Shown here: piece by piece, positions 6,407 to 28,573 of the stretch | How positions within the stretch are numbered: the stretch's first letter is position 1 | Layout: each line of letters opens with the position of its first letter | IMG/VR virus record: IMGVR_UViG_3300045988_112906 | Length of the DNA: 64,000 nucleotides | Direction: 5' to 3' (one strand) | Origin: a virus | Made by a program: the position numbers and the translations under genes | Notes under the pieces: generated by a model | Database searches by the model: none | Seen by the model: only the letters and a program-made list of their open reading frames with translations | What the model was told of the DNA's origin: nothing

Positions 6407-6440
6407 GTGTTTTATTGTTACACTACAAAATTTTAAGGTA

Positions 6441-7964: not shown

Positions 7965-8005
7965 CGGAAACACGGCAAAACGTATCGCCAAATATTATAT
8001 ATTTG
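7965..8005 (+). promoter_or_regulatory. Late promoter L1: CGGAAACACGG-N22-TATATTTG
   Basis: Same element and identical spacing as L2-L4. The -7 box ends 26 nt before the 8032 ATG. Confidence 0.65.
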
Positions 8006-10201: not shown

Positions 10202-11645
10202 TAATCAGAATCCACAGCAGCAGAAAAGGGTACCTGTCTCCATTAATGGGTACCCTGAGGCTGTACATGATATGATGAGGGCTAAGTACCCTGATTATGA
10301 TCAGGTGATGGGATTGGGGAACCAGACTATGCAGGGTGGTCCTAGTGGGCAGATTCCAGCGGTCGCTCCCCAACCTATGAATATGAACGTGTTTCAGCAG
10401 AATGGCGGCGTTACCGGTAAACTGGAAGCTCCTGCTGTTCAGACTCAGCAGGCACAGACAGCAGCTTCTTCTGTACAGACTCCCTATCTTGGTGATGCAG
10501 CAGAGAAGACTCAGCAGCCTCAGACTAGTTTCGAGGGAATGCAGCAGCCTACAGGCTGGAATGAGGACGGCACACCTAGCTATGATGCGCTTTCTTCCGC
10601 ATTGAACGGTTCAGTAGCCCAGCAGAGGCAGGTTCCAGAGTTCCAGGCAGACCCTTCACAGAGGGATGGCGGCTTCTTCGGGTGGCTGGGCAAGCTGATT
10701 CCCAAGAGCCGACCGGGTATGCGTGAGGGTGAGACTCCTGATGAGTATGACCGCAGGATCACCACCAACCGGGAGCGTATTGCGGCATTTGCTGATGCCA
10801 TACGTCACATGGGCAACATCGTGAATACTTCCAAGGGTGCGCCTTTGCAGGTGTTCAACGACCCTACCGCCATGATGGAAGAGGGCTATCAGAAGCGAAA
10901 GGTTCAGAGACAGAAGCAGGATGCCATTGATGCGGATGCGGCTTACAAGCAGGCGAATCTCAGCTTGAAGGAACGAGCAGCAGAAGCACAGAGAGCTTAT
11001 CAGCAGGCTACGCTCGGCTACAAGCAGGCTGAACTTCAGCAAAAAGCCGACAAGGATAAGAGCGATTTAGCTAAATGGAAGGCTAAGTTTGAGTTCGATG
11101 CTGCCAAGGATAATAGAGACTTCGAGTACAAGAAGATTCGTGACAAGATAAAGGACGGACAATGGCAGGCTGGATATGGAATCAAGATTGCTAACCTCAA
11201 CCTATCAAGAGCAAGATTTGCGCATACTGTTGCAAAGGATGCAAGGGGACGTGGTAAAGCCGTCGGCTATGCGACCCCATACGGTAGCCTATACTCCAAT
11301 AAGGAGTTGACACGAAATCAGGAAAACCAGTTATGGGATTTCATGATCAGGAACAAACAGATTACGCCGGCAAAGCTCAGAGAGTATCAAGCAGCCTTGA
11401 ATGATGCAGAGACAGAGGTGAACGGAAAAATCATAAAAGGTTCTTCCTCAAAGGCAAGAGGAATCATTCAGAAGGCTATTGCTTACGGATTCATGGATGC
11501 GACTCCTAAGGGTGATAGGCTTAGAAAGTTCTGTACTACCCAGCTTGGAATGGGTGAAGACAGAGTATATAAAACTCCCCAGAACGCTACGACTTGGGTT
11601 AAAGGTAGCGTGAAGCAGGGAAAGACAGGTAATTGGTCAATTTAA
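10191..11645 (+). CDS. Gln-rich / coiled-coil protein (484 aa)
   Basis: ORF track. Overlaps the upstream gene by 11 nt. Confidence 0.65.
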   Translation: MANNNQNPQQQKRVPVSINGYPEAVHDMMRAKYPDYDQVMGLGNQTMQGGPSGQIPAVAPQPMNMNVFQQNGGVTGKLEAPAVQTQQAQTAASSVQTPYLGDAAEKTQQPQTSFEGMQQPTGWNEDGTPSYDALSSALNGSVAQQRQVPEFQADPSQRDGGFFGWLGKLIPKSRPGMREGETPDEYDRRITTNRERIAAFADAIRHMGNIVNTSKGAPLQVFNDPTAMMEEGYQKRKVQRQKQDAIDADAAYKQANLSLKERAAEAQRAYQQATLGYKQAELQQKADKDKSDLAKWKAKFEFDAAKDNRDFEYKKIRDKIKDGQWQAGYGIKIANLNLSRARFAHTVAKDARGRGKAVGYATPYGSLYSNKELTRNQENQLWDFMIRNKQITPAKLREYQAALNDAETEVNGKIIKGSSSKARGIIQKAIAYGFMDATPKGDRLRKFCTTQLGMGEDRVYKTPQNATTWVKGSVKQGKTGNWSI

Positions 11646-11657
11646 TACATTATATAT

Positions 11658-14600
11658 ATGGCAGACAAAGTAACATCACTTTATAACGCATTAAAGGCGG
11701 ATGGATTGTTCAAGCAGGCAAGAAGCCTGAATGACTTCAAGGCGAAAATGGCTTACCAGGGCTATCGTTCGCAGATTTACAAACTGGCTAGGGATAAGGG
11801 CGCAAATGTCGGCACGTTTTCCCAGTTCACCAATGCGCTTGGTTACAGCAGCGGTAGCCCGAAGCCCAGACAATCTTATGGTAGCTACCATACTCAGCAG
11901 CATAAGCCAGCAGAGAATAAAGCTATGACTACCGCACAGAGGGCAATGCAGGTGGCGCAGGAATATCAGCAGACTCATCAGCCTACTGATTACCTTCACA
12001 GACCGCAGAACCAGATGGGCAGGGCACGGAGAAATGCGCCGGGCAAGGCTTCTCCTTTCGTTCAGTCTCTCTATGAGATTGACAATGCACAGAAGGGACC
12101 TGATTATTCAGTTGACTATACATCACCAAAGGCTACACAGCAGGTGTATCAGCAGAATCAGCAGTTAAGAAGACAGGCGGCTAAGACTGCAGGCGACCAT
12201 ATTGTAAATGATGAGTACCGCAGACAGAGTCAGCCGATGATTGACAACGGAACCGTCGGCGTGATGAAGCCTATGGGCGAGATAGAGCAGGAAATGAGCG
12301 ATGCAGCTGATAGCCTCGTTGCAAGTAGCGGTGACTTCATCAAGAACAGTATCAACAATGAGTATAAGCAGGCAACTCTTAACGCAGAGAAGGAGATTCG
12401 CAGCAATGATGCTATGGGAAATCCTTTCATGGGGTCTAGTGCAGGTCTTATCAGCACTCAGATTGCTAATAAATATGAGTCTCCAGACAAGATAATGGCA
12501 AGCTTGCAGAACAGTATCAAGAAAAATATTGCAAATATTTTGCCTCGGGCTAGAGAACAGGCTATTCGGCTTGGTGTTTCAGAAGACTACTACATCAACA
12601 ATATGGTCCTTCCGAAGATGGTAGAGAAAGCTGTCGGGGATTTCAGAGAGACGGAAGTTGCAAGACGAATGCCTAAGAATGATCTGGACTATTTCGTTCA
12701 GGAGGCTACCAGTTCAAACTATCTTGCAAAACTCGGAATGATGCTCCTGAAAACAAAGAGCCAAAGACAGTTTGACGAGGAGGCGTTGGCTCGCACCAAC
12801 GAAGGAATGAATCCGAATTACAAGCCAAGCACGGCGTTGAGAGTTGGAGCAGACGTAGTAGGTATGGTTTCAGATCCTATTTTCGGTGCATCGGCTAAAG
12901 CGGGCGGACTTGTTGCTGGTAAGCTGATTGGTAATAGTACCAAGCTAGCGGCATTGATGGCTAACGGAAACCTTGCGCAGAGATTGATGGCAAAGGGAGC
13001 ACAGGCTGTGACAAGCGGCGGTGTTACCGGTTTTGTATTCGACTCTACAGGCTCTGTGATTCAGAACTACTCTACCGGTGAAGACACTTCTCTGGGGAAT
13101 ACCTTAAAGGTTGCAGCAAAGGGCGGTGCGACAGGTGCGGTGAACTTTGCTACTATGAGTCTGGCAGGCATTCCTCTAAGTGAAGTTGGAAGAAGCGTAG
13201 GACTGACAGGTATAAAGGGCGGTTCATTCTGGGGAAATGCAGGAAGAGCTACTGCCAAGGTAGGCTTGGAATCAGGAAAGACCTATATGGAAGCTATGGG
13301 TATGTATCTTGGTGGATATGTATCAGGAAAACTTGAAGGAAGAACGGATGCCAACGGAAAACCTATCGAGTTTGATTTGTGGAATGGCACTATGGAGAGT
13401 CTTCCTACCGCCATCGGTTTCAGATTGCAGCATGCCGTGGAAGGATTGAGAGGCGGAAGAAAGAACGAGAAGGGTGAAGATATGGGCTGGTTTGGCTCTA
13501 CCATTGCCAACTTCAAGGATTTCCTCACCTCAGACAAGGCTAAGGAATCAAGATTCCTGATGACGGAGGATGAGAGAAACATGATATTTTCTTCTGGTGC
13601 CATGAACGGCTTGATGCCGGACGGCGAGAATATTGTCAGTTACGCAAAGAGAACCAAGAACAAGAAGGTAAGCTATGATGATCCATATCTGGAAACAGAT
13701 GCTTCCATGATCAAGAACACCTATGACCAAATCATGGCAGATTCTAAAGTTTCTTGGGATGCCAAGGCTAAGTTCTCAGCTATGGTTACAGGAATCATGC
13801 CATCGGCTCGCCCGATGATGGACTATATTACATTCTCTAATGAGGACTATGTAAAGGATGGGCTGCTGAGAGGAAAGCGCAAATACGTGAACGAGTATTC
13901 TGCTAACGGTGAGCTGTTATCAAAGATTCCTTATGACAACAAAGAGGATAGGGATAATGTAGTCTATACCCACAATATCAAGAGGGAGAATCTACGTCTG
14001 TATAACGCAATGGGCTTGCTCGCAAGACAGGATAGAAACAACTATGAGCTACAGAATGACTTCTTTGTGGAAAACATGAAGAAGCCAGGCGCCGATGTCA
14101 ATACCCTTGTAACAAATATGGGTAATGAAGGTTCTGATGTTTTCAGAGATTTTTCACTCTTTGCCTTGAACTCAGAAAAAGGAACTGTTCTGAAAACCAT
14201 TGATTCTGTAGCCGTCCGTAACGGAATGAAGAGTGAGGATCTAATCAAAGCCATGAGAAAGAATCCGATGAAACGAACAGATTTCGAGCAGAATGTATGT
14301 GTAGAGCTTCGCCGTGCATTGGAATCAAAAGCTTTTCCTTACGGTAAGGTTCATGTGGAACAGAGCAATCTCAATGGTAAGGATGTTGCCGAGGACAATA
14401 ACCTTGGAACCGAGCAGCCAAACGGCGATGCAGTAAAGCAGGAACTGAATGGTCTGAGGCAGGCAGAGGAAGAAGTGGAAGTGCTGATGCGTGACAATGA
14501 TGTGTTCAGCCAGAACTTCAAGAAGCTACAGAGCCAAGGCTTAACGAATCCTCAGATTTATGACTGGATGGTCCAGCAGGGCGGCTTGACCGTAGAGCAA

Positions 14601-17600
14601 CTTGAACCATTTGCCCATTATATTAATGCGAACGCTAGAGTGCAGGGTATGCAGGAAGCTACCAAGCAGAAGATTGAAGAAACTGTATCAGCCTTTGTTC
14701 AAGATTGGAGCTATCACGGCACATTTAACGGTCAGCCAATGAATGGCGAACAGGCTCTGTATGTACAGGATAGCAACGGAAGAACCCTTCTTGTGGGTTC
14801 GGGTGATGTCACATTCGACCAGACCAACGGCAGAGCTAAGGAAGGTGTCGGCGATATGCTCGTATGCTTCGACCCTAACACTAAGGAAATGGTCTATGTG
14901 AAAGCTGACGAGGTTACTTTCTTCCAGAATCAGCCTATCGACCAGTTTGCTGCTGAGTATCGCCAGAGATTGCAGATAAAGAACTCTGAGCCTTACAATC
15001 AGGCGGCACAGGAACAGGCGATGCAGGATGCAGCCAAGCCTCAGCAGGAGCAGGAAGCTCCGCAAGATAATACCACAAAATCGGAAGATAGTACCACAAA
15101 ATCGGGTGAAAATGGCAAAGATGATACCACATCTGACACCACATCGGGCAAAAATAATACCACAAATGAGGACTTAGTACCACAAGAGCAGCCACAGCAG
15201 GAAAGCGAGGGTATGAAGCTCGAAGATGGCACTCCTGTTCCTTTTGATGCAAACGGAGATCCTGATTTCATGAAAATGACTCCAGAGCAGGGGGCTGAGG
15301 TCTATAAGATGCTGTTTGAGGAAGATGCGCCAATGCAGATTGACAGCGACATCAAGACCTTGGAGAAAGACTTGGAGAAGGTAAAGGCTTCCAAGTATGA
15401 AGGCGCTTCTGTTATGGAGAGAGCCGCAGCTCGTAAGAAGGTGAAGGAAGCTATCGCACTGGCTGAGACTCAGGTGGAGAAAGCCAAGGCTATCAAGACT
15501 GCCATGGAAAAGAAGCCTGAGGCAGAGAATACCGGTGTAGGTACGGCTGAAAACGCAGGACAATATGAAAAGGAACGTAAGCAGGGCTATCGTGAAGGTG
15601 AAGGCGGCGTTATCTATCATCGTCAGAAGCCAGAGGATGTTGGAGGTGTACGAGGCAAGGAAGTAACAGTAGCCTTCTCCCCTACCGAGAAAGTTGCAGG
15701 TCATGTTAAGCTGGTTGAGCTTGATTCTGTTCAGGCTAGCCACAACAACGGTCAGCTGAATCTTCTTCATTTCGGTCCAGACTGGCAGCCTAAGGACAGA
15801 AGCAGCCAGGCATCAAGAGTTGAGGCTGAGAAGATTGCAGGCAATATTGACCCAGAGCAGATTACTGGCAGCAACAATGCCTTCATAGGTTCGGCGCCGA
15901 GTGTGAACGAAAGACATGAAACCATCCAAGGCAACAACCGTGTGGATGCTTTGAAAGAAATGTATGCCTCTCACCCTGATCAGGCAGCCAAGTACAAGCA
16001 GTGGTTGATTGACCACGCAGCTGAGTTCGGCTTGAATGCTGAGGACATCAAGAAGATGAAGAAGCCTGTGATTGTAAACGAATTGCCTGTAGATGATGCT
16101 ACTGCAAAGAAGCTGGGTCAGATGATGGCTAGCGGATTCGAGAGTGGCGGCAAGCGTATTCCTGAGGTTAGCGCTACCATCAACAAGCTTGGTGACAAGA
16201 TGGAGAATCTGGCAAACGTTCTTCTTGCCGAGGGAACTCTTGGTGAGGATGCCAAGCTCAGCGACTTGATTAACCAGAACTCCAAGCGAGCTTTGGAATA
16301 TCTCAACAAGAACGGATTCATAGACAATACCGAGTATGAGAATCTGGCTACCGATGTTGTTACCAGAAGACAATGGTTAGAGAATGTGTTGAAGGCTAGT
16401 CTGTTTGATGGAAACAGAAAGACAGAAGCCGCATTCAACCGATTGCCAGGCAACGCTCAGAAGGCAGTATTGGCAACCTTCATGCGTGACAGAAACAGCA
16501 AGGCTGAGGATAGGATCAAGGAGAATATTCAGAAATCCTTTGAGGCTTACAATGAATTGAACCAGATTGCAGGGTTCAAGAATGCCAAGAATATCGAGCA
16601 GGCAAGGGCTGCAATACAGGCGGAACTGTTAAATGGTTCTAATAATGTGTTTGGAGAGGCTTCAATTCGAGAAAAATACACTAACTTTGAACTCGAATTA
16701 GCAGCATTATACAAGGGTTTGAAAGACCAGAAGAGCCTGACAGGATTGTTTGGCGAGTTCTACAATGCCGTTCAAGGCAAGATTGGTAAGCAGCTGGATG
16801 CTTTCAGTCAGGAAAATGCTGAGCCTTTAGGTAAGGACGAGGCTATAGAAAAAGTCTTTGGAATCAATAACAAGCAAGATTATGACAGACGAAGAGAAAC
16901 TGAATCTCCTTCTGAATCTGGAGGAGAAGATGGGGCTGAACCAGCAGGAGACAGACCAGCAGAAGCAGGAGAAGGAAGAGTAAATTCTGAGGATGAAGAC
17001 AAGCCAAATTCAGCAGGCTTTACTCCAAAGGAAATTAGAGATCATCAGGAAAAACTTGATAGAGCTAAGGAAAAATACGTAAAGGCTTTAAAAGAAGCCA
17101 AGAGTGAGAAGGAGATCAAAGCAGCGGAAGGTGAATTTGAGTTTGCGTATAAAGATCACCAGAATATGAACGGTGTTCTTGACGAGGCATCTGTGGCTGA
17201 CATGTGGAATAAAGAACTTGAATCAGCAAAGGATTCCGTTAAGAAAGACTCAAAAGAACCGTCCGCAGATCCTATGGAAGGTTTGAAGCAGGCTGCTGAC
17301 GCATTCCATGAAGAGCAGAAGCAGAAAGGTGAATTTGCCATGAACTTGAAGATTGGCAAGGCTCGACAAGATTATGCTGCCGCCAAGGAAAGCGGTGATG
17401 CAGAGCGGACCACCACGGCTGCCAAGGAATTGAAGCATCTCTTAGACGACAGATTGAAGCAAGAGGGTAAAGGTCTTGCTGAGAGACAGAAGATTATCGC
17501 CGAAGAGATAGGAAAGGCTGAGGCTGAGATAATCGACAAGCCTTGGGAACAGATGGACTTGGAGGAACGAGAAGCTGTTTCTTCAAAGAACCCTCTCACG

Positions 17601-19580
17601 GAATCAGAGATTAACGAACTGACCTCTGAGGAAAATAAAGAATTGATACCTGCCGCACTCGCATATTTGCGTGGTGACAAGAGCAATATCATAAACGCAA
17701 TATCTTACTTTAAAATTTGGAACGATGTTAGAAATAGACATGAGAATGTTTCCGACAATAGCGGAACAGAAAACGGAACACAGCTGGATGCTGCCGATAC
17801 TACAGGCGGCGAAGGATTGGGACTGGGACGAGGACGAGAAAGCGGAAGACCTGATGGACCAGTGGATAGAGGAACAGGCAACGAAGCTGCACCCGGAGAG
17901 CGAAATGGCGGAGAGAGTAATCAGAACGACACTACTCTATCTGCTGGAGAACAAGGCAATAAGCAAGGTGAAGGAAATTCATCCGGAGTGGGCGCAGTAC
18001 CTGCCGGAGGTTCTGACACCAACGGAGGCGGTTCAGCTAGCGGAAATGGACATGTATCTGGAGGAAGTGGACGTGAAAGCAGCAACAGACCTGCTGACAC
18101 GAATGCAGGACGGAAGCCTACAGCCAAGCAAGGAACTACTTTCCCAGATAGCACAGCAGAACGGCTAAAGCAGGAAAGAGCTGACTATGAGAAGAAGAAG
18201 AAAGACTTCTGGGCTAGATGGAAGAAGGCAGGGCAAGGCTATGCCAAGATTGCCCTGACTCCTTTCAAGAAGCTCAACCTTACACCAGAGCAAATAGAAA
18301 TGCTGCCTGAGTTGGTAAAGATGCACCTTAACGGTGCTGTCTTGAAGATTAAGGAGGGTATCTACAAGTTCAACGAGTGGAAAGCTGCCATGCTTGCCGA
18401 GGAAGGCGAGGAGCTGAAAATGATAGGTCTTAGTGATGATGATATTGACAGATTCATTGAAGACTATTGGAACACTCCTTACGAAATGGATGGTGAGACC
18501 CATACAATCAGGGAGTGGAGCAGCATCTATGGAAACCAGCATCTGAAAAAGAAGCTAAAAGAACCTCTTGAAGAGAAGTACAAGAGACAGATGGAAGCCG
18601 AACCTATCGAAGTGAAGGTGGGCGACATGAAGAACATCGAGGAGACTTTGCCTTATCTCTTGCCTCAGCAGCAGGAAGACGTATTGAAGGCTGAAACTCA
18701 GTTCTTCGGAAAGGAACATACAGACCGTGAACATGCTTACGGTAAGGGCTATCTGTTTACCAATGGAACTGGTACTGGAAAAACATACACAGGTCTTGGC
18801 ATTGCTAAGCGATTGGCTAAGCAGGGCAAAGGCAGAATACTCTTTATTACTCCTAGCCAGAAGAAGGTTTCCGACTGGATAAAGGACGGAAAGAATCTTG
18901 GTCTGGACATTAAGGATCTTGACTCCTGGGCAAAAATGCGTGGAACCACTGCTACTACAGAAAGTGGTGAAGGTATGGTAATTACTACATTTGCAAACTT
19001 TGGTCTGAATAAGAAACTTCTTGAAACAGAGTGGGATGCCGTTATCTATGACGAGTGTCACCGTATCATGGAAAACAAGAAGGGTACTGAAACAGCCAGA
19101 AGTATGCAGCACTACATGGTTACCAATCGTGACGAGAATCATTGTTTCCAGAGATTGCAGAGCATCAACCCTGAGTATCAGAAAATGAATGGTGCTGCCG
19201 AAAAATTCGATGCGTTGCGACTAAAGGAAATCGAACGCATAAAGAAAGAGTACAAGAATAGCCATCCAAGTGCTACAGACAGAGATGTGGATAATGCTAC
19301 ATTAAAGAGCCTTCCTAGAGATTTGAACAGCTTTGCCTCTGCCGACGGAATGACTTTCCCTAAGCTTGGAAAAGCATATCAGGATTTCATCAAGGCAAGG
19401 GAAGCATATAATAAGGTAGAGCCTAAACTGAAAGAGCAGGCAAAGAGTTCGTGGAAACACACAAAAACCATATTCCTCTCCGCTACACCTTTCAATACTA
19501 GAGAGAATCTTGATTATGTTGAGGGCTATATCTTTAAGTATCCGGAAAAGGACGAGAGAGGAATGGGTGGAAGAACCTAG
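11658..19580 (+). CDS. Giant polyvalent protein, part 1 (2640 codons): unknown N-terminal region, ParB-like motif, SF2 helicase motifs I-III. Ends at an in-frame TAG.
   Basis: Gly-rich hydrophobic stretch (about aa 395-560). IQGNNRVDAL at 15930..15953 resembles the ParB/Srx box. GTGTGKT at 18765..18785 is Walker A. DECH at 19050..19061 is motif II. LSATP is motif III. Confidence 0.85.
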   Translation: MADKVTSLYNALKADGLFKQARSLNDFKAKMAYQGYRSQIYKLARDKGANVGTFSQFTNALGYSSGSPKPRQSYGSYHTQQHKPAENKAMTTAQRAMQVAQEYQQTHQPTDYLHRPQNQMGRARRNAPGKASPFVQSLYEIDNAQKGPDYSVDYTSPKATQQVYQQNQQLRRQAAKTAGDHIVNDEYRRQSQPMIDNGTVGVMKPMGEIEQEMSDAADSLVASSGDFIKNSINNEYKQATLNAEKEIRSNDAMGNPFMGSSAGLISTQIANKYESPDKIMASLQNSIKKNIANILPRAREQAIRLGVSEDYYINNMVLPKMVEKAVGDFRETEVARRMPKNDLDYFVQEATSSNYLAKLGMMLLKTKSQRQFDEEALARTNEGMNPNYKPSTALRVGADVVGMVSDPIFGASAKAGGLVAGKLIGNSTKLAALMANGNLAQRLMAKGAQAVTSGGVTGFVFDSTGSVIQNYSTGEDTSLGNTLKVAAKGGATGAVNFATMSLAGIPLSEVGRSVGLTGIKGGSFWGNAGRATAKVGLESGKTYMEAMGMYLGGYVSGKLEGRTDANGKPIEFDLWNGTMESLPTAIGFRLQHAVEGLRGGRKNEKGEDMGWFGSTIANFKDFLTSDKAKESRFLMTEDERNMIFSSGAMNGLMPDGENIVSYAKRTKNKKVSYDDPYLETDASMIKNTYDQIMADSKVSWDAKAKFSAMVTGIMPSARPMMDYITFSNEDYVKDGLLRGKRKYVNEYSANGELLSKIPYDNKEDRDNVVYTHNIKRENLRLYNAMGLLARQDRNNYELQNDFFVENMKKPGADVNTLVTNMGNEGSDVFRDFSLFALNSEKGTVLKTIDSVAVRNGMKSEDLIKAMRKNPMKRTDFEQNVCVELRRALESKAFPYGKVHVEQSNLNGKDVAEDNNLGTEQPNGDAVKQELNGLRQAEEEVEVLMRDNDVFSQNFKKLQSQGLTNPQIYDWMVQQGGLTVEQLEPFAHYINANARVQGMQEATKQKIEETVSAFVQDWSYHGTFNGQPMNGEQALYVQDSNGRTLLVGSGDVTFDQTNGRAKEGVGDMLVCFDPNTKEMVYVKADEVTFFQNQPIDQFAAEYRQRLQIKNSEPYNQAAQEQAMQDAAKPQQEQEAPQDNTTKSEDSTTKSGENGKDDTTSDTTSGKNNTTNEDLVPQEQPQQESEGMKLEDGTPVPFDANGDPDFMKMTPEQGAEVYKMLFEEDAPMQIDSDIKTLEKDLEKVKASKYEGASVMERAAARKKVKEAIALAETQVEKAKAIKTAMEKKPEAENTGVGTAENAGQYEKERKQGYREGEGGVIYHRQKPEDVGGVRGKEVTVAFSPTEKVAGHVKLVELDSVQASHNNGQLNLLHFGPDWQPKDRSSQASRVEAEKIAGNIDPEQITGSNNAFIGSAPSVNERHETIQGNNRVDALKEMYASHPDQAAKYKQWLIDHAAEFGLNAEDIKKMKKPVIVNELPVDDATAKKLGQMMASGFESGGKRIPEVSATINKLGDKMENLANVLLAEGTLGEDAKLSDLINQNSKRALEYLNKNGFIDNTEYENLATDVVTRRQWLENVLKASLFDGNRKTEAAFNRLPGNAQKAVLATFMRDRNSKAEDRIKENIQKSFEAYNELNQIAGFKNAKNIEQARAAIQAELLNGSNNVFGEASIREKYTNFELELAALYKGLKDQKSLTGLFGEFYNAVQGKIGKQLDAFSQENAEPLGKDEAIEKVFGINNKQDYDRRRETESPSESGGEDGAEPAGDRPAEAGEGRVNSEDEDKPNSAGFTPKEIRDHQEKLDRAKEKYVKALKEAKSEKEIKAAEGEFEFAYKDHQNMNGVLDEASVADMWNKELESAKDSVKKDSKEPSADPMEGLKQAADAFHEEQKQKGEFAMNLKIGKARQDYAAAKESGDAERTTTAAKELKHLLDDRLKQEGKGLAERQKIIAEEIGKAEAEIIDKPWEQMDLEEREAVSSKNPLTESEINELTSEENKELIPAALAYLRGDKSNIINAISYFKIWNDVRNRHENVSDNSGTENGTQLDAADTTGGEGLGLGRGRESGRPDGPVDRGTGNEAAPGERNGGESNQNDTTLSAGEQGNKQGEGNSSGVGAVPAGGSDTNGGGSASGNGHVSGGSGRESSNRPADTNAGRKPTAKQGTTFPDSTAERLKQERADYEKKKKDFWARWKKAGQGYAKIALTPFKKLNLTPEQIEMLPELVKMHLNGAVLKIKEGIYKFNEWKAAMLAEEGEELKMIGLSDDDIDRFIEDYWNTPYEMDGETHTIREWSSIYGNQHLKKKLKEPLEEKYKRQMEAEPIEVKVGDMKNIEETLPYLLPQQQEDVLKAETQFFGKEHTDREHAYGKGYLFTNGTGTGKTYTGLGIAKRLAKQGKGRILFITPSQKKVSDWIKDGKNLGLDIKDLDSWAKMRGTTATTESGEGMVITTFANFGLNKKLLETEWDAVIYDECHRIMENKKGTETARSMQHYMVTNRDENHCFQRLQSINPEYQKMNGAAEKFDALRLKEIERIKKEYKNSHPSATDRDVDNATLKSLPRDLNSFASADGMTFPKLGKAYQDFIKAREAYNKVEPKLKEQAKSSWKHTKTIFLSATPFNTRENLDYVEGYIFKYPEKDERGMGGRT

Positions 19581-22500
19581 TTCTACCTTAATCACTTTGG
19601 TGCAGCATACAAGTTCCGCTACCATCGTCTGGAGCAGAGTATCAGTAACCCGGATGCCGTAGCCAAGCAGGAGGTTGCCTTCTCTGATTACTTGCAGAAC
19701 ACACTTGGCACGATGAGCGGAAGAATTATTGATAGTCCTTACGACTATTCTAGAGACTTTCCTACCGTGGCTCCTGATCATGCCGAGAGTTTCAATAATG
19801 CGGTGCAGGACACATTGAAGACAAAGTATCTGCATGATGCGTACAGCAAGACCATCGGTGATTACAACTATGGTAGTGCCCTTTTCGAGACTATGAAAGT
19901 GTCTGCTGCCATTGACAGAATCAAACAGCACTTGGATATGGGCAGAAAGGTTGTTATCTTCCATCGCCGTGTTGAGAGCAAGGAACCTTTGGAGGCTCCA
20001 TTTGCTTACATGCTTAGAGTTGCCAACGAGCAGATCAAGATGATGAAACCAGGCAAGGAGCGTGACGAATACATCAAGGAATGCACCGAGTTCCGAAACA
20101 AGTATGCAGACCTTCTGGAATGGGAGAAGACTCTTGACTACAGTATGCCAAGAGAACAGATTGCCAAGGTGTTTGGCGAGAAGAATGTGTTGTTCTTCAG
20201 CGGAAAGGAAAGCAAGAAGGTGAAGGATAAGGCGGTTGATACATTTAATGATGATGATAGCGGCAAGAATATCATCGTGATTCAGGAAGCTTCAGGAAAG
20301 GAAGGAATCTCACTTCATGATACCACAAGCAAGCACCAGCGTGTCTGCATCACTCTCGCATTGCCTCAGAGTCCTATCACAGCCTTGCAGATTGAAGGTC
20401 GCATTTACCGTATCGGTAATATGAGCAATGCCATCTTTGAGTACCCTATCTTGGGTCTCAACTCTGAAATGATGCTTTTTGGAGAAAAGTTCAATAATCA
20501 GGTAAGTACTACCGAGAACCTTGCATTGGGCAGTCAGGCAAGAAACTTGCGTGACAGTTTCGCTAATGGTATCTTGGAACATAGCGGTATTGTACCGGTA
20601 GAGAACCAGGGTGTAGGCGGAAAGGAGTTTGACGCAGCAACACCAAGTGAGAATGACCCATTCGATAATGCGGTGCTTGATTATTACAGCAATCAGAAAC
20701 TTAATAAGAACAATCGTGAAGGTAGCGACTACTTCCCTACTCCTGAACCTCTTGGCTACAAGATGGTAGAATGGGCTGGCTTGGGTGAAGGTGACTCTGT
20801 ATTGGAGCCTAGTGCCGGTCATGGAGCCATCGCAAGATACGTGCCTAAGACTAACGAAATGGTAAGCATCGAACCTAGTCAAAGTCTCTTCACGAAGTTG
20901 CAGTTGAAGGCTGGCGGTTTGGGTAGAAAGTTCTTAAACAATACGTTTGAGAACTATGCGCTGAACAACAAGCACGATGTAATTGTAATGAATCCTCCTT
21001 TCGGCAAGGCTGGTGCATTGGCTATCCAGCATGTTGACAAGGCTTTCAAGCACTTGGATGAAGGAGGTCGTATCGTAGCAATCATACCTAGAGGCTCAAC
21101 AGACAAGAAGTTTGACAAGTGGTATAACGAGCAGAAGAACGTTGCCATGCGTGCTGAGGTAAATCTGCCTGATATCCTTTTCCAGCAGGCAGGAACCAGA
21201 GTTGCATGCCGAGTAGTTGTATTGGATAAGATTTCCGATGCTGCTTTGAGAAGCAAGGCAGGTTATCCTGAAAAGATTGATCTGAGCGGTCATTACGATA
21301 AGATTGAAGATTTCTTCAATGACCTCCGAGATATTGAAATGCCTGAGCGCATCATTGATACGAATCTCAAAATGCAGAAGAAAGCCAAGGCTGCTGTCAA
21401 GGATATTATGGAAATCAAGGGCGTGAAAAACGTTTCTTATGGTAAGACTGGTATTGATGTTTCTTTGACTGGTTCTTGGATGAACTACGGAATATCTTTC
21501 ACTGGTAGTGACAAACCGAACTACTGGAGAGATAAGATGGCTAACTATTATACCAAATATGATGAGCTTCAAAAGCTGGAGTATCAGGAAAACAAGCAGT
21601 CGGTGTTTGATGAGTTGAAGAAACTGTCTTGCAAGCTTGCCGGTATGACAGAGGATGAAATGCAGAGATATATCGCATCAAAGACCAACGGCAGCACCCA
21701 CTTCCGTATGGAACTAGGCAAGACATTCTCAGACTCCAAGGAGAACTTTGATGGAGTAAGAGACAGAGCAGTAGAGGAAAAAGGCATTGTCATGCCTAAC
21801 CTGAATAAGGAAAGCGTTAATGTTGTGCCGGTGGAAAAACATAGCTTTGGAGTTACCGAGAATGAGATATTGACAAATGCAAAGGCATGGGCGAAAGATA
21901 ATCTTGTAACTACAGGAAAATCGGAATTGCCTACAATGCGTGATGGAACGCCTTATACTATTAGTAAAAAGGCTGTTGAAAAATACTTGTCTGAGAGTGC
22001 TGTAAAGAAGAGCGATGGTCTTGATATTCATCTTTCCGTTCTTCCAAAGCTTACAGATGTTATTCATGAAAGCATTGAAGCTGAGATTCATCCAGACTAC
22101 AATAAGGACGAAGACGGAAATCGCAGCATCGAAAATGGGCACGGTGACAATATTTTGGTCCATCGTTTGTATGGTGCTGTACAATTGGACGGTAAGACGT
22201 ACCGAGTAAAAACAACCATGCAAGAGTTCAGAGGTGGTGAAGAAAACAAGCCTCATAGTTATGAGGTAACAAAAATAGAGTTGCTGGAAGGCTCCAAGAC
22301 AGCGAACGAATCCGACAGTCTCCCTTTGAGCAGTGCAACCAACAACTCTGAAAATGAGTTACTTGGCTCCCCTGGAGAGCGAGAGAATCCCGACAAACCA
22401 CATTCGGATGCACCAAGCAACTCTATTTCTGTTGCAAAGTTACTAAATGGAGTTGAGAAATCATACGATTCTGGGAAGAAATTGCTTGAAGAAAGCAAAA

Positions 22501-25500
22501 ATTTAACAGATGAAGATACTTATTTTAGAAATGATAACGATTCACCCGTATCAATTTCTAAGGATGCTCCTGTTGTAGTAAAGCATGTGGCGAAGGTTGC
22601 AAAGGCTACTGGCGGCAAGGTGAAGATGTTGCAAAGTGTCGAAGAAGTTACCAATGCCGAGGCTAAGACAAGACTTGAAAAGGGTGAAAAGGTAGAAGGA
22701 TGGTACGATGAACGCACAGGTGAAGTTGTGCTGTATATGCCAAACGTACATGACAGCTACACAGCTGAGAAAACGGTATGGCATGAAATCGTAGGTCATA
22801 AAGGCATGCGTGAACTGTTCGGTAACGACAACTACGACAAATTCCTTGATGATATTTACTTCAATCTTGATAAGCCGGAATACGCCGATCTTAAAAAGCT
22901 CGTCATGAAGGAACTACAGTACAATCCATTCGATTACAGAAATGCCATCGAAGAGGCTATTGCTAGAATGGCGGAAGAGGGACATGGCGAGCATGGTCTT
23001 TGGAATAACCTGAAAAACAAGGTAGCAAATATCTTTAGAGAAATCGGCTACCGTGTGGCGCCGAACACAAAGGACATTAAGTATCTCTTATGGCTCGCCA
23101 AGAATTACTCCAAGCATCCTGAGAGTGATGGTTACTTTGCTATCAGAAGAAATGCCTTGCTGCATAAGTTAGAGAAAGATAATACGCCTAGCATCGTGGA
23201 TAGAAACGGAATGTACTTTGATAATGATGGAAAGAACCATGATTATCTGCTAGACTTGAACCATAAGGACTTCGAGGAGGCTACCGATGGAAAAGTGCAT
23301 TTCCGCACCTCCCCTATGACTGCATCTAAGATTGAGGAGTATAACCGCAGACTCGGAACAAAACTCTATGCTTTCAAGGAAAGTTCCGTTGATAATATGC
23401 AGTCTTTGCAAGAGGCTATGGAAATAATCTCTGGTGAAAAGAATGCGTGGACGGATATTCCTTCTGCCTTCAATCCATTGCAGGCGCAGAACCGCATTGA
23501 TAGTATCGTACAGCAAAAGGCAGAAGAGTATGACGATAAATACACGAAGCCTCTTGATGATTCTTTCAAGAAAGTTGTATCTACCATGAGCGGTAGCGAT
23601 AAGGATGAGCAGTTGAGAAACGCACAGATCTATATGATTACCAAGCATGGTTTGGAGCGTAACCGTGTATTCTTTGTTCGTGACGCAATTCGGGATATGA
23701 TGAATGGCGATGTTACGAAAGCAAAGACATTGATGAAGGACTGGAACGACAAGCAGAAGGATTTGGCTGACGAACTAGAGAAAGGCAACATCAGATTTGA
23801 TGAGTACCTGGAGCAAATGGACGAATGGATTCGTAGCAACGTGGACGTTAACTTTGTTGCTGACGAACACGATTATTCTGGATTCCATGGTATGCAAAAT
23901 ATAGCCAAGACCTCTGATCCATACGACGACAAGCTTGCCATTGACAACGTGATGAGTGCAGAAAGCCAGATGGGTAGCGATTTGGCAAAAGACTTCTGGA
24001 TAAAGAAGAAGGCTGCAACAGATTACGTTATCGACCAAGAATACTACAACGGCTTTATTGATCAATCTGATAGAGATTATCTAAAGGGAATGTTCCAATG
24101 GTATGTGCCTCTTAGAAAGTTTGATGATACAACCGCAGAAGATGTGTATGGTTATATCGGAGAAAAGGGAGATCCTTCCAACTTTGTTGGTCCTGTATTG
24201 GCAAATGCAAAGGGAAGAAGCAGTCTGAGCGACATTAATGTTATGGCTCAAATATCCGCCATGGCAAAGTCTTCGCTTATCAATGGTGGAAAGAATGTAG
24301 TAAAGCAGTACTTTGCCAGATTTGTTTCTGCCTATGAAACTGGTAATACAAAAGATAAAATCTTTGTTGAAGTGAATCCTTGGCTAGAGAAGCACGTGGT
24401 AGATGGTAAAGAAGTTTGGGAAGAGGTTACACCTCAAATTCCGGAGAACGCCACACAGCAGCAAATAAGCGATATACTGCAAAACTTTGAGGACAGCATG
24501 CAGGCGAAGAAAGCAACTGGTGATGCAAAGCTTTCACACAGAAAGCCTAACATTGGCTTTAAATTCCAGCGTGCCAAGGATAAGTCTGAACATATCATTG
24601 ATGTGTATATCGCAGGAAGGAAAAGAAGCTTTGTCTGTCAGGGTAACCCAAGAGCAGCCCAAGCACTCAATGGTCTTTTGAAAGATTCAGGAACCAGAAA
24701 TGCGGTAACGCAATTTGATGCGAAGGTTACGAGAAAAATTGCCCAATTCAATACATCGCTGAATCCAGACTTTATGATGTCTAATATGTTGCGTGACTTA
24801 ACTTTTGCATCAGCCAATGTTACCAAGGAAGGATTTAGCTACACCAAGGACTTCTTGAAAGAATATGCAGGAAACATGATTTCTATCAAGAACGGAAAAG
24901 GTAGTGGAAACTATCTTACTATGTTCCGCAAGTATAGAGACGGTAAGCTTGATACAAATAATGAACGAGAAAGAATGTTCAAAGAGTTTATGGACAATGG
25001 CGGTCAGACTGGTTTTGTTCAAATCAAGAAACTGGAAAGCCTGATTGAGGAATATGATAACCTGATCAAGAAAGGAAGTAAGGATGCAGACGGATGGTTT
25101 GTCAAGAAAATCAAGGAAGGTGGAACCTTTATTGAGACTGCCAACGAGATTATTGAAAACGTAGCTCGCTACTCTACTTACTGTACTTCACGAAAGCACG
25201 GAAGAAGCGTAGGACGAAGTATCTATGATGCCAAGGAGGTTTCAACAAACTTCAACCGGCACGGTTCTGGAGATGCCATCAAGACCTTGAAAACTTCAAA
25301 TGATAGCAATATTGATAAGAAATTCCGTGGTACTCTCGGTTTCTTCAATAGCTGGATGAAGAATCATACGCAGTTCTATAACGCCGGCGTGCAAGGTGCA
25401 AATCTGTTTTTCAAGAACTATAAGAGTGCATGGAAGACTTCTGCCGTTTCATTCGGTATGTTACCTTTAGGACTCGGTATTGCTCAGGCGTTAATCAATC

Positions 25501-26600
25501 AATACCTGATTAATAATGAGGACGAGAAGGACAGAAAGGGCGTGAAGGATCCATACGCAGAGTTACCAGAATGGAAACGCAGAAATAATATCTGTATCTA
25601 TACTGGGCACGGAAACTTTAAGACTATTCCTATTGCCATCGAGTTAAGAGCGTTCTTCGGGTTGGGCGATATTGCGGCTGGCTATGTTGTGAATGATAAG
25701 TTGAAGAGTAGTACGCCTATCGGTTATGATATTTTGGGACAGATGGCACAATTAGTACCAGCCTCTGATTTCCTTGGACACCATTCGCCAAGCAACAACA
25801 TTAAGGAACTTGGAGAGGATGCAATACTTGCAGTAACTCCAACAACCATATCTCCTGCTATGGAACTTGCCTTCAATCGAGACTGGACAGGCAGACCTTT
25901 CTATCGTGATTATGACTATCTTGATAAGGCTCCAAGATGGAAGAGGGCATACGATAACACCAATAGTATTTATATGAGTATTAATAAATGGGCTAACCAA
26001 GGCACAAATGGTATTGATAGTTCTAATGCAGACATGAAGGGAAATGAAACTCTTGATTATCTTACTGCACCTTACGCTTGGCAACATTTGATAGATAGTT
26101 ACACCGGTGGCATGGGTTCAACTATTGGCAGAACTTACAAAACGTTAGAAGCTGTTGGTAAGGGCGTTGTATCTGGAGCAAAGAACAAAGAAGGATTCAG
26201 CAAGGGCTTCTCTGATGAATTTGAAAAGTTTGATAAAAATCAAATCCCTCTTTACAGGGTGTTTAACTATACTCCTAAAGAGGGGCAAGACATGCAGCGA
26301 ACTAGATCGAAATGGTATAACTATTCCGACGAGTTGAAGCAGACGGAATATAATATTAAGCAGTTGAAGACTAACACGCCTGATGTTTTGAAGAACATGG
26401 AGAACAATGCCAAGAAGTTCAACTTTACTCATAGCAAAGAAGGAAAGGCGTATAATATATGGAATGCAGCAGATAATTATATCCAGAAGAAGAAAAAAAT
26501 CTTAAAAAGAGTATCTGATCCGGAAGTAATCAAGTCAATTAACGAAGACATCAATCGAAAGATGCAAGAAGCGGTGAATGATTTGGATAAGCTAAATTAA
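19581..26600 (+). CDS. Giant polyvalent protein, part 2 (same frame, directly after the TAG): helicase C-lobe, N6-adenine DNA methyltransferase, HExxH metallopeptidase, long C-terminal region with TM-like segments
   Basis: The frame is open from 19581; the first ATG is only at 19713. QIEGRIYRIGN at 20388..20420 is helicase motif VI. VLEPSAGHGAI at 20799..20831 is the SAM motif. NPPF is at 20991..21002. HEIVGH is at 22782..22799. Confidence 0.8.
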   Translation, partial: FYLNHFGAAYKFRYHRLEQSISNPDAVAKQEVAFSDYLQNTLGTMSGRIIDSPYDYSRDFPTVAPDHAESFNNAVQDTLKTKYLHDAYSKTIGDYNYGSALFETMKVSAAIDRIKQHLDMGRKVVIFHRRVESKEPLEAPFAYMLRVANEQIKMMKPGKERDEYIKECTEFRNKYADLLEWEKTLDYSMPREQIAKVFGEKNVLFFSGKESKKVKDKAVDTFNDDDSGKNIIVIQEASGKEGISLHDTTSKHQRVCITLALPQSPITALQIEGRIYRIGNMSNAIFEYPILGLNSEMMLFGEKFNNQVSTTENLALGSQARNLRDSFANGILEHSGIVPVENQGVGGKEFDAATPSENDPFDNAVLDYYSNQKLNKNNREGSDYFPTPEPLGYKMVEWAGLGEGDSVLEPSAGHGAIARYVPKTNEMVSIEPSQSLFTKLQLKAGGLGRKFLNNTFENYALNNKHDVIVMNPPFGKAGALAIQHVDKAFKHLDEGGRIVAIIPRGSTDKKFDKWYNEQKNVAMRAEVNLPDILFQQAGTRVACRVVVLDKISDAALRSKAGYPEKIDLSGHYDKIEDFFNDLRDIEMPERIIDTNLKMQKKAKAAVKDIMEIKGVKNVSYGKTGIDVSLTGSWMNYGISFTGSDKPNYWRDKMANYYTKYDELQKLEYQENKQSVFDELKKLSCKLAGMTEDEMQRYIASKTNGSTHFRMELGKTFSDSKENFDGVRDRAVEEKGIVMPNLNKESVNVVPVEKHSFGVTENEILTNAKAWAKDNLVTTGKSELPTMRDGTPYTISKKAVEKYLSESAVKKSDGLDIHLSVLPKLTDVIHESIEAEIHPDYNKDEDGNRSIENGHGDNILVHRLYGAVQLDGKTYRVKTTMQEFRGGEENKPHSYEVTKIELLEGSKTANESDSLPLSSATNNSENELLGSPGERENPDKPHSDAPSNSISVAKLLNGVEKSYDSGKKLLEESKNLTDEDTYFRNDNDSPVSISKDAPVVVKHVAKVAKATGGKVKMLQSVEEVTNAEAKTRLEKGEKVEGWYDERTGEVVLYMPNVHDSYTAEKTVWHEIVGHKGMRELFGNDNYDKFLDDIYFNLDKPEYADLKKLVMKELQYNPFDYRNAIEEAIARMAEEGHGEHGLWNNLKNKVANIFREIGYRVAPNTKDIKYLLWLAKNYSKHPESDGYFAIRRNALLHKLEKDNTPSIVDRNGMYFDNDGKNHDYLLDLNHKDFEEATDGKVHFRTSPMTASKIEEYNRRLGTKLYAFKESSVDNMQSLQEAMEIISGEKNAWTDIPSAFNPLQAQNRIDSIVQQKAEEYDDKYTKPLDDSFKKVVSTMSGSDKDEQLRNAQIYMITKHGLERNRVFFVRDAIRDMMNGDVTKAKTLMKDWNDKQKDLADELEKGNIRFDEYLEQMDEWIRSNVDVNFVADEHDYSGFHGMQNIAKTSDPYDDKLAIDNVMSAESQMGSDLAKDFWIKKKAATDYVIDQEYYNGFIDQSDRDYLKGMFQWYVPLRKFDDTTAEDVYGYIGEKGDPSNFVGPVLANAKGRSSLSDINVMAQISAMAKSSLINGGKNVVKQYFARFVSAYETGNTKDKIFVEVNPWLEKHVVDGKEVWEEVTPQIPENATQQQISDILQNFEDSMQAKKATGDAKLSHRKPNIGFKFQRAKDKSEHIIDVYIAGRKRSFVCQGNPRAAQALNGLLKDSGTRNAVTQFDAKVTRKIAQFNTSLNPDFMMSNMLRDLTFASANVTKEGFSYTKDFLKEYAGNMISIKNGKGSGNYLTMFRKYRDGKLDTNNERERMFKEFMDNGGQTGFVQIKKLESLIEEYDNLIKKGSKDADGWFVKKIKEGGTFIETANEIIENVARYSTYCTSRKHGRSVGRSIYDAKEVSTNFNRHGSGDAIKTLKTSNDSNIDKKFRGTLGFFNSWMKNHTQFYNAGVQGANLFFKNYKSAWKTSAVSFGMLPLGLGIAQALINQYLINNEDEKDRKGVKDPYAELPEWKRRNNICIYTGHGNFKTIPIAIELRAFFGLGDIAAGYVVNDKLKSSTPIGYDILGQMAQLVPASDFLGHHSPSNNIKELGEDAILAVTPTTISPAMELAFNRDWTGRPFYRDYDYLDKAPRWKRAYDNTNSIYMSINKWANQGTNGIDSSNADMKGNETLDYLTAPYAWQHLIDSYTGGMGSTIGRTYKTLEAVGKGVVSGAKNKEGFSKGFSDEFEKFDKNQIPLYRVFNYTPKEGQDMQRTRSKWYNYSDELKQTEYNIKQLKTNTPDVLKNMENNAKKFNFTHSKEGKAYNIWNAADNYIQKKKKILKRVSDPEVIKSINEDINRKMQEAVNDLDKLN

Positions 26601-26671: not shown

Positions 26672-27106
26672 TTACTTTTTGACAGGAGCTTTGTTCTCTT
26701 CATTAATTGTATTGTTATCAAACAGAACATCCCATCCGCTTACACCATCTGATTTTAAGAAAAATAGACAGGCAAACAAAATAGCTACTTGAAAAGCATT
26801 TACTGTCATCTGATGAAAGGCAATACGGTATTCGCCATCACAGAGAATGAATGATGCAATGATGTTAACGACAACCATAGCCAAATATCCATACAAGCCT
26901 ATCTTCTTGGCAGAGCAAAGCATGATCAGGAAATAAACCACAGCTGCTCTTGCTATAATTTCATACACTCCAGCAGCAAGCGACACCTCATCTTGACTGA
27001 TATTCATTATGCTTAAGAATATACCTAAGCCACTGTTGAGAATACCGAGTATAAGGATGCATTCTGTAAACCCATTTAAACGAGCTGTTTTCTTTTTCTG
27101 TTCCAT
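26672..27106 (-). CDS. Integral membrane protein (144 aa, about 4 TM)
   Basis: ORF track; four long hydrophobic segments. AT-rich cassette gene. Confidence 0.6.
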   Translation of the reverse strand: MEQKKKTARLNGFTECILILGILNSGLGIFLSIMNISQDEVSLAAGVYEIIARAAVVYFLIMLCSAKKIGLYGYLAMVVVNIIASFILCDGEYRIAFHQMTVNAFQVAILFACLFFLKSDGVSGWDVLFDNNTINEENKAPVKK

Positions 27107-27117
27107 AATTCTATATT

Positions 27118-27555
27118 TTAAAAATTCAAATATGTTAAATAAAATGTTCCAAAAACTAATCCGTTAGCATCTATATAATTGTATTTAAATTTAAGACCTA
27201 CTTGTTTCATAAACCATCTAAATTCGGAGCGCTTCATATTATAAGCACCAGAGTCTATCATCTTTCTCTGTTCTTCGTTCATGTCGTCCTTAACTTCGCT
27301 CAATATTTCATTTCTTTCTTGCAGTGAATAATCATTCCTGTCTAACGTCAGATGGAAATTGTATGTCCAAACCCAATTTAGAAAGACCACCGATGTTAAT
27401 GTCGTGTAATCATCTATGTACATTGGGAGCTGCTGGTTGAATTCCCTTGCAGTCTTTATAAATAAATTTTTTGCTCTTTGCTTTTCTTGTACTGTCTGTC
27501 CAAAAGAAAACAGGCTTGCAAAAAGCAAAGCGAGTGCTAATGCAAATTTCTTCAT
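27118..27555 (-). CDS. Secreted protein (145 aa)
   Basis: Signal-like MKKFALALALLFASLFSFGQT. Confidence 0.6.
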   Translation of the reverse strand: MKKFALALALLFASLFSFGQTVQEKQRAKNLFIKTAREFNQQLPMYIDDYTTLTSVVFLNWVWTYNFHLTLDRNDYSLQERNEILSEVKDDMNEEQRKMIDSGAYNMKRSEFRWFMKQVGLKFKYNYIDANGLVFGTFYLTYLNF

Positions 27556-27687
27556 ACCGTTATTTTTTTATTCGTTAATCTTCGTGCAAAAATACTAAAA
27601 ATATTAATAGGGTGTATCTTTAAAGTGCAACTTTCTTTATAGTTTAGACAAAAACAAAATAAGGTGAGCACCTGCCCACCTTATTTA

Positions 27688-28419: not shown

Positions 28420-28573
28420 AATAATATATTTTAAAATTCTACTTCCAATGAAAGGGCATAAGAAATGCCCCATCCGCTAGTGTGAGAGGTGCAGACAGGG
28501 CATTATATTTTATATGATGAAATCCATTGATTCTGTGTCTGTTTGTGCCTCTCACCTCACGAACTTACGAGTG

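Follow-up and report, generated by a model that had tools for sequence, protein, structure and literature searches.

A probable giant polyvalent-protein gene, interrupted by an amber codon, in a temperate phage of gut Bacteroidales

The stretch analyzed here (IMG/VR virus record IMGVR_UViG_3300045988_112906, 64,000 nucleotides (nts), hereafter the window) carries a giant reading frame on its plus strand, and we consider it likely that this locus is the gene of a giant phage-type polyvalent protein of a temperate, podovirus-like phage of gut Bacteroidales, interrupted by an amber codon. The frame extends over 11658..26600, comprises 4,980 codons, accounts for 23.3% of the window and ends with TAA; the intact protein of 4,980 amino acids (aa) has a computed mass of 558 kDa. 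A preceding sequence-only reading had described a single 14.9-kb frame, and although its extent, strand and share of about 23% were correct, the frame is not an uninterrupted open reading frame (ORF), since TAG is found in frame at 19578-19580, codon 2641 of 4980. This TAG is located inside the helicase, past motif III (FLSATPF, nt 19473) and ahead of the C-terminal RecA-like lobe, and the nonsense change in Gln codon 2641 splits the SNF2 module between its two lobes. Because the module is split, helicase-dependent function is probably lost in this clone, and the combined helicase-methyltransferase function is most likely lost or crippled.

Translation with table 11 gives two ORFs, 11658..19580 (2,640 aa) and 19692..26600 (2,302 aa), and public gene callers split the frame likewise, into 2,640 aa and 2,295 aa, the latter from the ATG at 19713. 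With this start, the 44 conserved residues between the two fragments would be dropped, including the family-conserved block FxxxxFG...Y..RY. In this clone the C-terminal part would be translated only via read-through or reinitiation, for example at ATG 19713 (2,295 aa, 260 kDa). The parts of the frame are as follows.

11658..19580, plus strand: N-terminal part of the giant frame, 2,640 aa, 293 kDa, holding the N-terminal ~1,340 aa, ParB and half of the helicase and terminating at the amber codon
19578..19580, plus strand: TAG at codon 2641, an amber codon in frame that differs from Gln CAG by C-to-T
19581..26600, plus strand: C-terminal part of the giant frame, 2,339 codons open up to the TAA stop

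Domains and class of the giant protein

From its N-terminus the frame encodes a region of about 1,340 aa, a DdrB-type ParB domain, a charged low-complexity linker, a SWI2/SNF2 ATPase, a gamma-class N6-adenine methyltransferase (MTase), the large polyvalent-protein-associated domain LPD3, an HExxxH...E domain, about 800 aa with one hydrophobic segment, and LPD38.

15684..16079 (aa 1343-1474), plus strand: DdrB-like ParB domain with a GNNR box; Pfam PF18763, E 6.8e-25, 88 bits against a cut-off of 27.6
18708..20447 (aa 2351-2930), plus strand: SWI2/SNF2-type superfamily 2 (SF2) ATPase; motifs I, II and III in the N lobe, motif VI in the C lobe, amber codon between the lobes
~18765, ~19050, 19473 and ~20390, plus strand: helicase motifs found in the sequence, namely Walker A GTGTGKT, DECH, motif III FLSATPF and motif VI QIEGRIYRIG
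20712..21260 (aa ~3019-3201), plus strand: gamma-class N6-adenine DNA MTase; FPTP cap, motif I LEPSAGHG, motif IV NPPF
21873..22241 (aa 3406-3528), plus strand: LPD3; Pfam PF18798, E 2.5e-8, 34.5 bits against a cut-off of 27
22596..23120 (aa 3647-3821), plus strand: HExxxH...E domain, candidate zincin-like metallopeptidase of the HEXXXH type; H3709, E3710, H3714, E3766, E3773
25440..25496 (aa 4595-4613), plus strand: the sole transmembrane-like hydrophobic segment (Kyte-Doolittle, 19-residue window, peak 1.61)
25548..26159 (aa 4631-4834), plus strand: LPD38; Pfam PF18857, E 1.5e-26, 94 bits against a cut-off of 27

The identity of these domains is established, except for the peptidase. The box IQGNNRVDAL, taken in the sequence-only reading as ParB/Srx-like, is present from 15924 and is assigned by Pfam to a DdrB-type ParB; the module aligns by BLASTP with aa 35-163 of P1 DdrB (30% identity over 147 aa, E 5e-16), GNNR corresponding to GNGR. 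The SF2 helicase call was borne out by Pfam, where ResIII (1.3e-12) and AAA_34 were above cut-off and Helicase_C and Helicase_C_4 below, and by a profile built from eight diverse relatives, which matched the SWI2/SNF2 structures in PDB (SsoRad54-like 1Z63, 8.7e-13, followed by Rad54, RapA and DDM1). For comparison at the DNA level we used related loci (numbered with L below), of which 34 are on viral contigs and 12 in genome bins; 43 of them can be scored at the column of the TAG. In 30 relatives, down to 38% identity, helicase motifs I, II, III and VI vary little or not at all.

The same 30 relatives hold FPTP...LEPSAGHG...NPPF without variation, and this order is the gamma-class signature of the EcoKI/TaqI family in polyvalent proteins (PMC5512222). 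In the window, VLEPSAGHG starts at 20799 and NPPF at 20991. The region matched DNA-methyltransferase families of PHROGs at 5.6e-28 to 2e-12, and its profile matched M.TaqI (4e-5), HsdM (1.6e-5) and RM.BsaXI (1.6e-5), while the Pfam family MTS was below cut-off; the earlier call of a gamma-type N6-adenine MTase is thus well founded. The motif coordinates given with these calls were all exact or at most 6 nts off. Free-standing homologs of about 850 aa (among them P0015, P0024, P0031 and P0039), from Flavobacteriia chromosomes and plasmids, are 33-37% identical to the helicase-MTase module of the giant and span the helicase into the MTase as far as the query reached, indicating that the unit of helicase followed by MTase also circulates on its own.

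Less could be assigned elsewhere in the frame. The N-terminal region of about 1,340 aa had no detected relatives in Pfam, PHROGs, PDB or annotated phages, where a tblastn search with its first 1,341 aa also came back empty. A Pfam scan of the regions lacking a domain, in tiles and with E up to 1, gave nothing credible, single-sequence PDB searches with each half of the giant gave no matches, the NCBIfam scan gave only a sub-threshold P-loop match, and megablast of the helicase-MTase DNA against phage records matched nothing. The region at aa ~395-560, described earlier as Gly-rich and hydrophobic, is indeed Gly/Ala-rich, but stays below transmembrane-like hydrophobicity by the Kyte-Doolittle measure with a 19-residue window. 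Several transmembrane-like segments had been proposed in the last ~1,200 residues; by the same measure there is only the one at aa 4595-4613.

The assignment to the polyvalent proteins was supported, the DdrB-ParB, LPD3 and LPD38 domains all being above the Pfam cut-offs. LPD3 and LPD38 are families first defined from polyvalent proteins, and LPD38 and DdrB-ParB are listed as restricted to the phage-type ones (PMC5512222). A class mark is the presence of at least two unrelated effector or enzymatic domains in one polypeptide of a phage or conjugative element, and here ParB, SNF2, MTase, LPD3, HExxxH and LPD38 are found in one frame, though split by the amber codon. The late or virion gene context is found as well, through a promoter box and, in a sister clade and phage BKO1-TP3, through the portal gene as direct neighbour, both described below. 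The giant is therefore a further member of the known class described by Iyer, Burroughs, Anand, de Souza and Aravind (2017, J Bacteriol; PMC5512222), to which the amber codon, a relic 3′ end and the promoter box add useful details; current views are confirmed and refined, and none is overturned. With the proteins described there it shares the many enzymatic domains, LPD3, LPD38 and DdrB-ParB, the dyad of MTase and SWI2/SNF2, a candidate HEXXXH peptidase, the late or virion context and the strong mosaicism among close relatives. It differs in that its exact architecture, the N-terminal ~1,340 aa and the ~800 aa before LPD38 match nothing described, in that the helicase precedes the MTase, and in that this copy is broken by the amber codon.

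Two head-packaged proteins of phage P1 are among the closest known parallels. DarB (2,255 aa) shields DNA in cis from type I restriction (PMC5512222), and the giant resembles it in the fusion of an EcoKI/TaqI-type N6-adenine MTase to a SWI2/SNF2-like ATPase and, when the sister clade is considered, in the adjacency to the portal gene, which darB likewise adjoins in P1. The giant is, however, more than twice as long and adds ParB, LPD3, HExxxH and LPD38, which are absent from DarB. DdrB is packaged after proteolytic processing and has an N-terminal DdrB-ParB and a C-terminal predicted metallopeptidase (PMC5512222); the ParB modules are homologous, and a candidate metallopeptidase is located further downstream in both proteins. 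Whereas DdrB and DarB are separate in P1, both functions are in one frame here. Among cultured phages, gp55 of BKO1-TP3 (PQ571269; 5,553 aa, annotated 'DarB-like antirestriction') matches the giant over the C-terminal ~900 aa with 27-30% identity (E 1e-80), and homologs are also present in the Bacteroides phages BF1-TP2 and BS-TP4. BKO1-TP3 is likewise a temperate Bacteroidales phage with a nearby integrase and a P22-like portal, and its gp55 is one giant ORF; it is, however, a distant intact allele directly before the portal, whereas the gene in the window has the amber codon and is 18 kb away, with an antirepressor cassette and the relic 3′ end between. Domain boundaries and catalytic residues are now precise enough for mutagenesis in BKO1-TP3, BF1-TP2 and BS-TP4. 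To our knowledge, polyvalent giants other than P1 DarB and DdrB have had almost no experimental tests.

The resemblance to DarB has limits, and these, together with the searches on the peptidase, count against our reading of the locus. In single-pair BLASTP the similarity was marginal (MTase, E 2e-4, 26% over 204 aa; motif VI region, E 9e-4), and the helicase N lobe matched DarB only at Walker A (E 0.11). The order is inverted, DarB having its MTase at aa 88-273 and its helicase at ~840-1520, whereas the helicase comes first in the giant. LPD36, which is said to precede the MTase, gave no Pfam match in the giant, so that the MTase type and the SNF2 fusion agree with DarB while the canonical order of LPD36, MTase and helicase does not. 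Given the inverted order, the absence of LPD36 and the marginal similarity, we do not regard the giant as a DarB ortholog, although by analogy it would be DarB-like in its working.

As for the peptidase, the sequence-only reading had placed a zincin motif at WHEIVGHKG. Its location is right (HEIVGH, 22782-22799), but the motif is HExxxH and not HExxH, and scanning of tiles with Pfam and other profiles, which supported the helicase and the MTase, gave no profile support to a peptidase. Pfam placed no family on the region with E up to 10, whether the window protein or any of nine diverse relatives was scanned; two PDB profile searches with the domain found nothing; hhalign of its profile with the predicted peptidase of P1 DdrB was negative (probability 0.3); and a PDB fold search with a confident AlphaFold2 model gave no significant match, the top being MATCAP (7z6s; E 0.35, TM score 0.21), itself an HExxxH metallopeptidase (PMC10499314).

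Conservation and the predicted layout of the domain are nevertheless compatible with a peptidase. A profile search of 1.84 billion representatives found 2,184 clusters at E up to 1e-3, nearly all from proteins of 2,000-6,000 aa, and among the matches listed one third had two or three copies. HExxxH is present in 189 of 197 segments, and over 192 diverse segments H3709, E3710 and H3714 are conserved at 98-99%, E3766 at 99%, E3773 at 96% and G3716 within 96-99%. A first AlphaFold2 model from a shallow alignment was poor at the motif and uninformative; the model from a 25-sequence alignment (predicted local distance difference test, 89.4) shows three strands (residues 9-12, 35-38 and 43-47), then a helix with HExxxH and a later helix with the conserved Glu. 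This agrees with the layout of the zincin-like metallopeptidase core, in which three strands, the HExx(x)H helix and a later Glu helix follow each other and of which an HEXXXH clade has been named (PMC5512222). In the viral structure library BFVD the model matched only parts of further polyvalent giants from phages (E 2e-10 to 7e-4); matches to a SprT-like protein (E 0.6) and to a 'zincin protease' fusion of crAssphage (E 0.09) were non-significant. The extended motif and the distal Glu on a later helix are shared with the HExxxH metallopeptidases DPP III (M49) and MATCAP/TMCP, but similarity in sequence or fold is not significant and gave no evidence of common descent. Because the motif residues and the model layout fit, yet no profile or fold matches, a peptidase is plausible but unproven. 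Polyvalent giants are plentiful in gut phages, the HExxxH module alone accounting for more than 2,000 sequence clusters.

Promoter class, portal adjacency and proposed delivery

Late expression of the giant, proposed from the sequence alone, gains support from a box, ACGGAAACACGG, that is common only to the operons of the giant, the portal, the scaffold/capsid and the lysis genes. There are exactly four copies in 64 kb, against 0.35 expected, and all are located 22-23 nts ahead of a -7 element like TAnnTTTG and 57-71 nts before a start codon, the box occupying the place of the usual -33 TTTG.

7965..8005, plus strand: phage-specific promoter of the giant block; ACGGAAACACGG box at 7965-7975, 22 nts upstream of the Bacteroidota -7 element TATATTTG at 7998-8005, 27 nts before the ATG of the first upstream gene, up1
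44793-44803, plus strand: ACGGAAACACGG copy of the portal operon
44764-44774, minus strand: ACGGAAACACGG copy of the scaffold/capsid operon
56132-56142, plus strand: ACGGAAACACGG copy of the lysis cluster
6399-6429 (minus strand) and 6537-6568 (plus strand): canonical Bacteroidota promoter pair (TTTG, 17-23 nts, TAnnTTTG) beside a 98-aa HTH_3 gene, 6601..6897

The portal and scaffold/capsid operons are divergent, each with its own box. Because of the common box, the giant operon falls into one promoter class with the genes for virion and lysis, and we regard ACGGAAACACGG with its -7 element as a candidate class of phage late promoters; for the giant operon this is support at the level of sequence, and not proof, that expression is late. 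In the relatives, the loci stop too short upstream to show conservation of the box. Searching for ACGGAAACACGG followed by the -7 TAnnTTTG element could help to locate further late genes among these phages.

The window is a temperate phage, as seen from the following genes as well as from tail fibre and amidase genes.

341..1477: Bacteroidota-type tyrosine integrase
42171..43892, minus strand: SU10-type capsid protein
44864..46888: P22-type portal
49211..51325: terminase

No tail-tube or tape-measure gene had been evident in the sequence-only reading, and this absence fits a podovirus-like virion with a P22-type portal and an SU10-type capsid. The whole genome (~76 kb) is probably represented by a contig of 76.3 kb that is co-linear with the window. 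The host is most likely a member of the gut Bacteroidales and probably Prevotella-like; the closest named protein is from Prevotella stercorea. Host assignment from the bins of metagenome-assembled genomes (MAGs) was dropped, the bins being taxonomically mixed and unreliable. The HTH_3 (helix-turn-helix) gene with its divergent promoters looks like a lysogeny switch, and about 14 small minus-strand genes are located on the far side of the promoter pair.

In the sister clade (L016-L020, L022-L024 and L028) and in BKO1-TP3, the portal gene directly follows the giant gene on the same strand. By analogy with P1 DarB and DdrB (Iyer et al. 2017), the intact giant would be made late, loaded into the capsid and ejected together with the DNA. 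The SNF2 motor could then track along the entering DNA while the fused MTase modifies adenines, or alternatively the complex could merely occlude this DNA, and by tracking or occlusion the DNA would be shielded in cis from restriction. The ParB-like domain may bind or nick nucleic acid, and processing of the polyprotein into functional parts may be the task of the HExxxH domain.

The amber codon and the alternative explanations

All 43 scoreable relatives have a sense codon at the TAG column, and in relatives the giant frame is a single one, uninterrupted over 3,362-5,652 codons. The six nearest relatives, 98-99% identical in the stretch, read CAG there and share the context (AGAACC CAG TTCTAT, against AGAACC TAG TTCTAC in the window), indicating that a C-to-T transition created the amber codon. 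Database homologs are likewise continuous through the column, with Gln there in the four closest, and the profile of phrog_10691 is unbroken over the stop, with positions 1694-1956 matched ahead of it and 1978-2682 past it. We considered an intron, an intein or an insertion as the cause of the break and rejected all three, as the homologs align gap-free over the column and phrog_10691 is continuous. In comparison with L027, the closest relative with an intact gene, the ratio of nonsynonymous to synonymous substitutions is 0.11-0.15 in the part before the TAG and 0.07 in the part downstream, and the 2,339 downstream codons contain no additional stop or frameshift. The good condition of the rest of the frame suggests that the nonsense mutation is recent, or else an artefact.

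Reassignment of TAG in the code is effectively excluded. TAG terminates four other genes (capsid, tail fibre, amidase and up1), none of the 17 other identified genes has it in frame, and reading it as sense merges the giant frame only and extends no other real gene. ARAGORN found no tRNA in the window, in the 6.7 kb beyond it (in L039, to window-equivalent 70.7 kb) or in the loci of the relatives. Genome-wide recoding was rejected on these grounds. Among the copies of the giant gene from MAG bins, L045 and L046 have internal frame changes and L040-L042 end soon after the HExxxH region; these irregularities could be true decay, alternative architectures or assembly errors.

The origin and the consequence of the TAG can be explained otherwise. 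It could be an artefact of assembly or sequencing, or a minority variant, in which case the real phage has CAG and the intact 558-kDa protein and all else is unchanged. We regard this as unlikely, if by no means negligible. The same allele is found in three public assemblies (ENA ERZ1748977, Logan SRR1761719 and ENA ERZ28621585), so that three different assembly pipelines gave the same base, consensus substitution errors are rare at ~10x Illumina coverage, and a single clean transition is also what a true nonsense mutation looks like. However, over 22-28 kb all three assemblies match the window with 100% identity and therefore probably derive from one sample and from the same reads, at ~10x coverage, and this probable lack of independence speaks for an artefact, as do the sense codon in all 43 relatives, one transition away in the closest, the strong purifying selection on the intact downstream codons, and the frameshifts in other MAG copies, which are typical of assembly noise. 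A real amber codon, on the other hand, might be tolerated or exploited, yielding a split polyvalent protein or low-level read-through to Gln, for which we see only a slight chance. The products would be the 293-kDa N-terminal region with ParB, plus either a trace of the 558-kDa protein or a separately initiated 260-kDa protein with MTase, LPD3, HExxxH and LPD38; if true, the halves of such giants would be separable functional units and the SNF2 motor would be dispensable for propagation. Recoding of TAG to Gln in late genes is known from Bacteroidales gut phages, and with this precedent a suppressor tRNA or programmed read-through might place Gln at the amber codon, giving both 293-kDa and 558-kDa products or the full-length protein conditionally. 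The nearest relatives have Gln at the aligned position, the residue to which TAG is usually reassigned, the downstream frame is fully preserved, and the tRNA scan covered all but ~5.7 kb of the ~76-kb genome, a limit that also counts against us. We nevertheless find this explanation scarcely credible, because only one in-frame TAG occurs among 18 identified genes while TAG ends four of them, including the late capsid, tail fibre and amidase genes, because no tRNA was found in the region scanned, and because TAG is absent from the aligned column of all 43 relatives and, as far as seen, from elsewhere in their gene.

Delivery in the virion can be questioned as well. The giant could instead act within the infected or lysogenic cell, for example as a methylase-translocase on replicating phage DNA, or in superinfection exclusion or defence. 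In the window its gene is located beside the lysogeny-control region, 18 kb from the portal and outside the structural block, and its block begins 1.1 kb downstream of, and co-oriented with, the Cro/CI-like HTH gene and a canonical promoter, with the integrase near. The reversed order and marginal similarity with respect to DarB, and the common occurrence of the free-standing helicase-MTase homologs in bacterial chromosomes and plasmids, point in the same direction. Delivery also has against it that, in the literature on cultured Bacteroides isolates, the BKO1-TP3 paper is silent on the giant homolog and we found no packaging or ejection data for close relatives. Against action within the cell stands the promoter, since the operon uses the ACGGAAACACGG box of the portal, capsid and lysis operons and not the canonical -33/-7 type, and also the portal gene directly following the giant gene in the sister clade and BKO1-TP3, and the homology of the ParB module to head-packaged P1 DdrB. 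We therefore give action within the cell a rather small chance, and prefer the reading of an amber-interrupted, phage-type polyvalent protein whose intact form would be delivered with the DNA.

Upstream genes, allele replacement and neighbouring genes

Three genes precede the giant in its operon, and the earlier description of three coiled-coil or Gln-rich proteins is accurate in outline, as one is A/Q/N-rich, one K/E-rich and coiled-coil-like, and one Gln-rich.

8032..8829, plus strand: up1, 265 aa, A/Q/N-rich with an N-terminal hydrophobic segment; no family match
9062..10201, plus strand: up2, 379 aa, K/E-rich, coiled-coil-like; no family match
10191..11645, plus strand: up3, 484 aa, Gln-rich N-terminus; no Pfam or PHROG match

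Most of the closer relatives (L004-L012, L014, L025-L027 and L029) have a homolog of up3, at least 74% identical, immediately before the giant gene, and up3 could be a partner or chaperone, like the helper proteins that P1 DarB needs. Homologs of up2 are located ahead of the giant gene in L004 and L027 and, with weaker similarity, in L011, L012 and L029.

The nearest relatives are 95-97.5% identical in nucleotide sequence, yet they differ by whole blocks. In L004 and L027 another sequence takes the place of the ParB block (gene nts 3543-5281, window ~15200-16940), and in L005, L006, L007 and L026 the same is true of the N-terminal block (the first ~1,200-3,500 nts of the gene). Downstream of the giant, a minus-strand cassette of three genes at 26672..28473, one of them a Bro-N/Ant antirepressor, is followed by a second copy of the C-terminus.

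28754..29608, plus strand: free-standing 284-aa ORF, a copy of the giant C-terminus (LPD38 end), 34% identical (E 4e-55) to the last 308 aa of the giant and co-linear to the end

This ORF matches positions 3193-3418 of the 3,427 positions of phrog_14770 and shares 66% identity with the C-terminus proper of the L008/L009 allele; in L006, L007 and L026 only 137 aa of it are present. It is probably a relic 3′ end left by allele replacement. Together, the nonsense allele, the relic 3′ end and the block swapping suggest that such giants are quickly broken, replaced and reshuffled.

Other genes of the window include one for a 916-aa protein without assigned function directly after the terminase (51338..54088, plus strand; phrog_32516, 1.2e-76) and, in the tail-fibre region, a 730-aa protein with a calcineurin-like metallophosphoesterase domain (37110..39302, minus strand). 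An HNH endonuclease gene (35226..36068, plus strand; best PHROG HNH match 1.8e-10) is located between genes annotated without function and the tail module.

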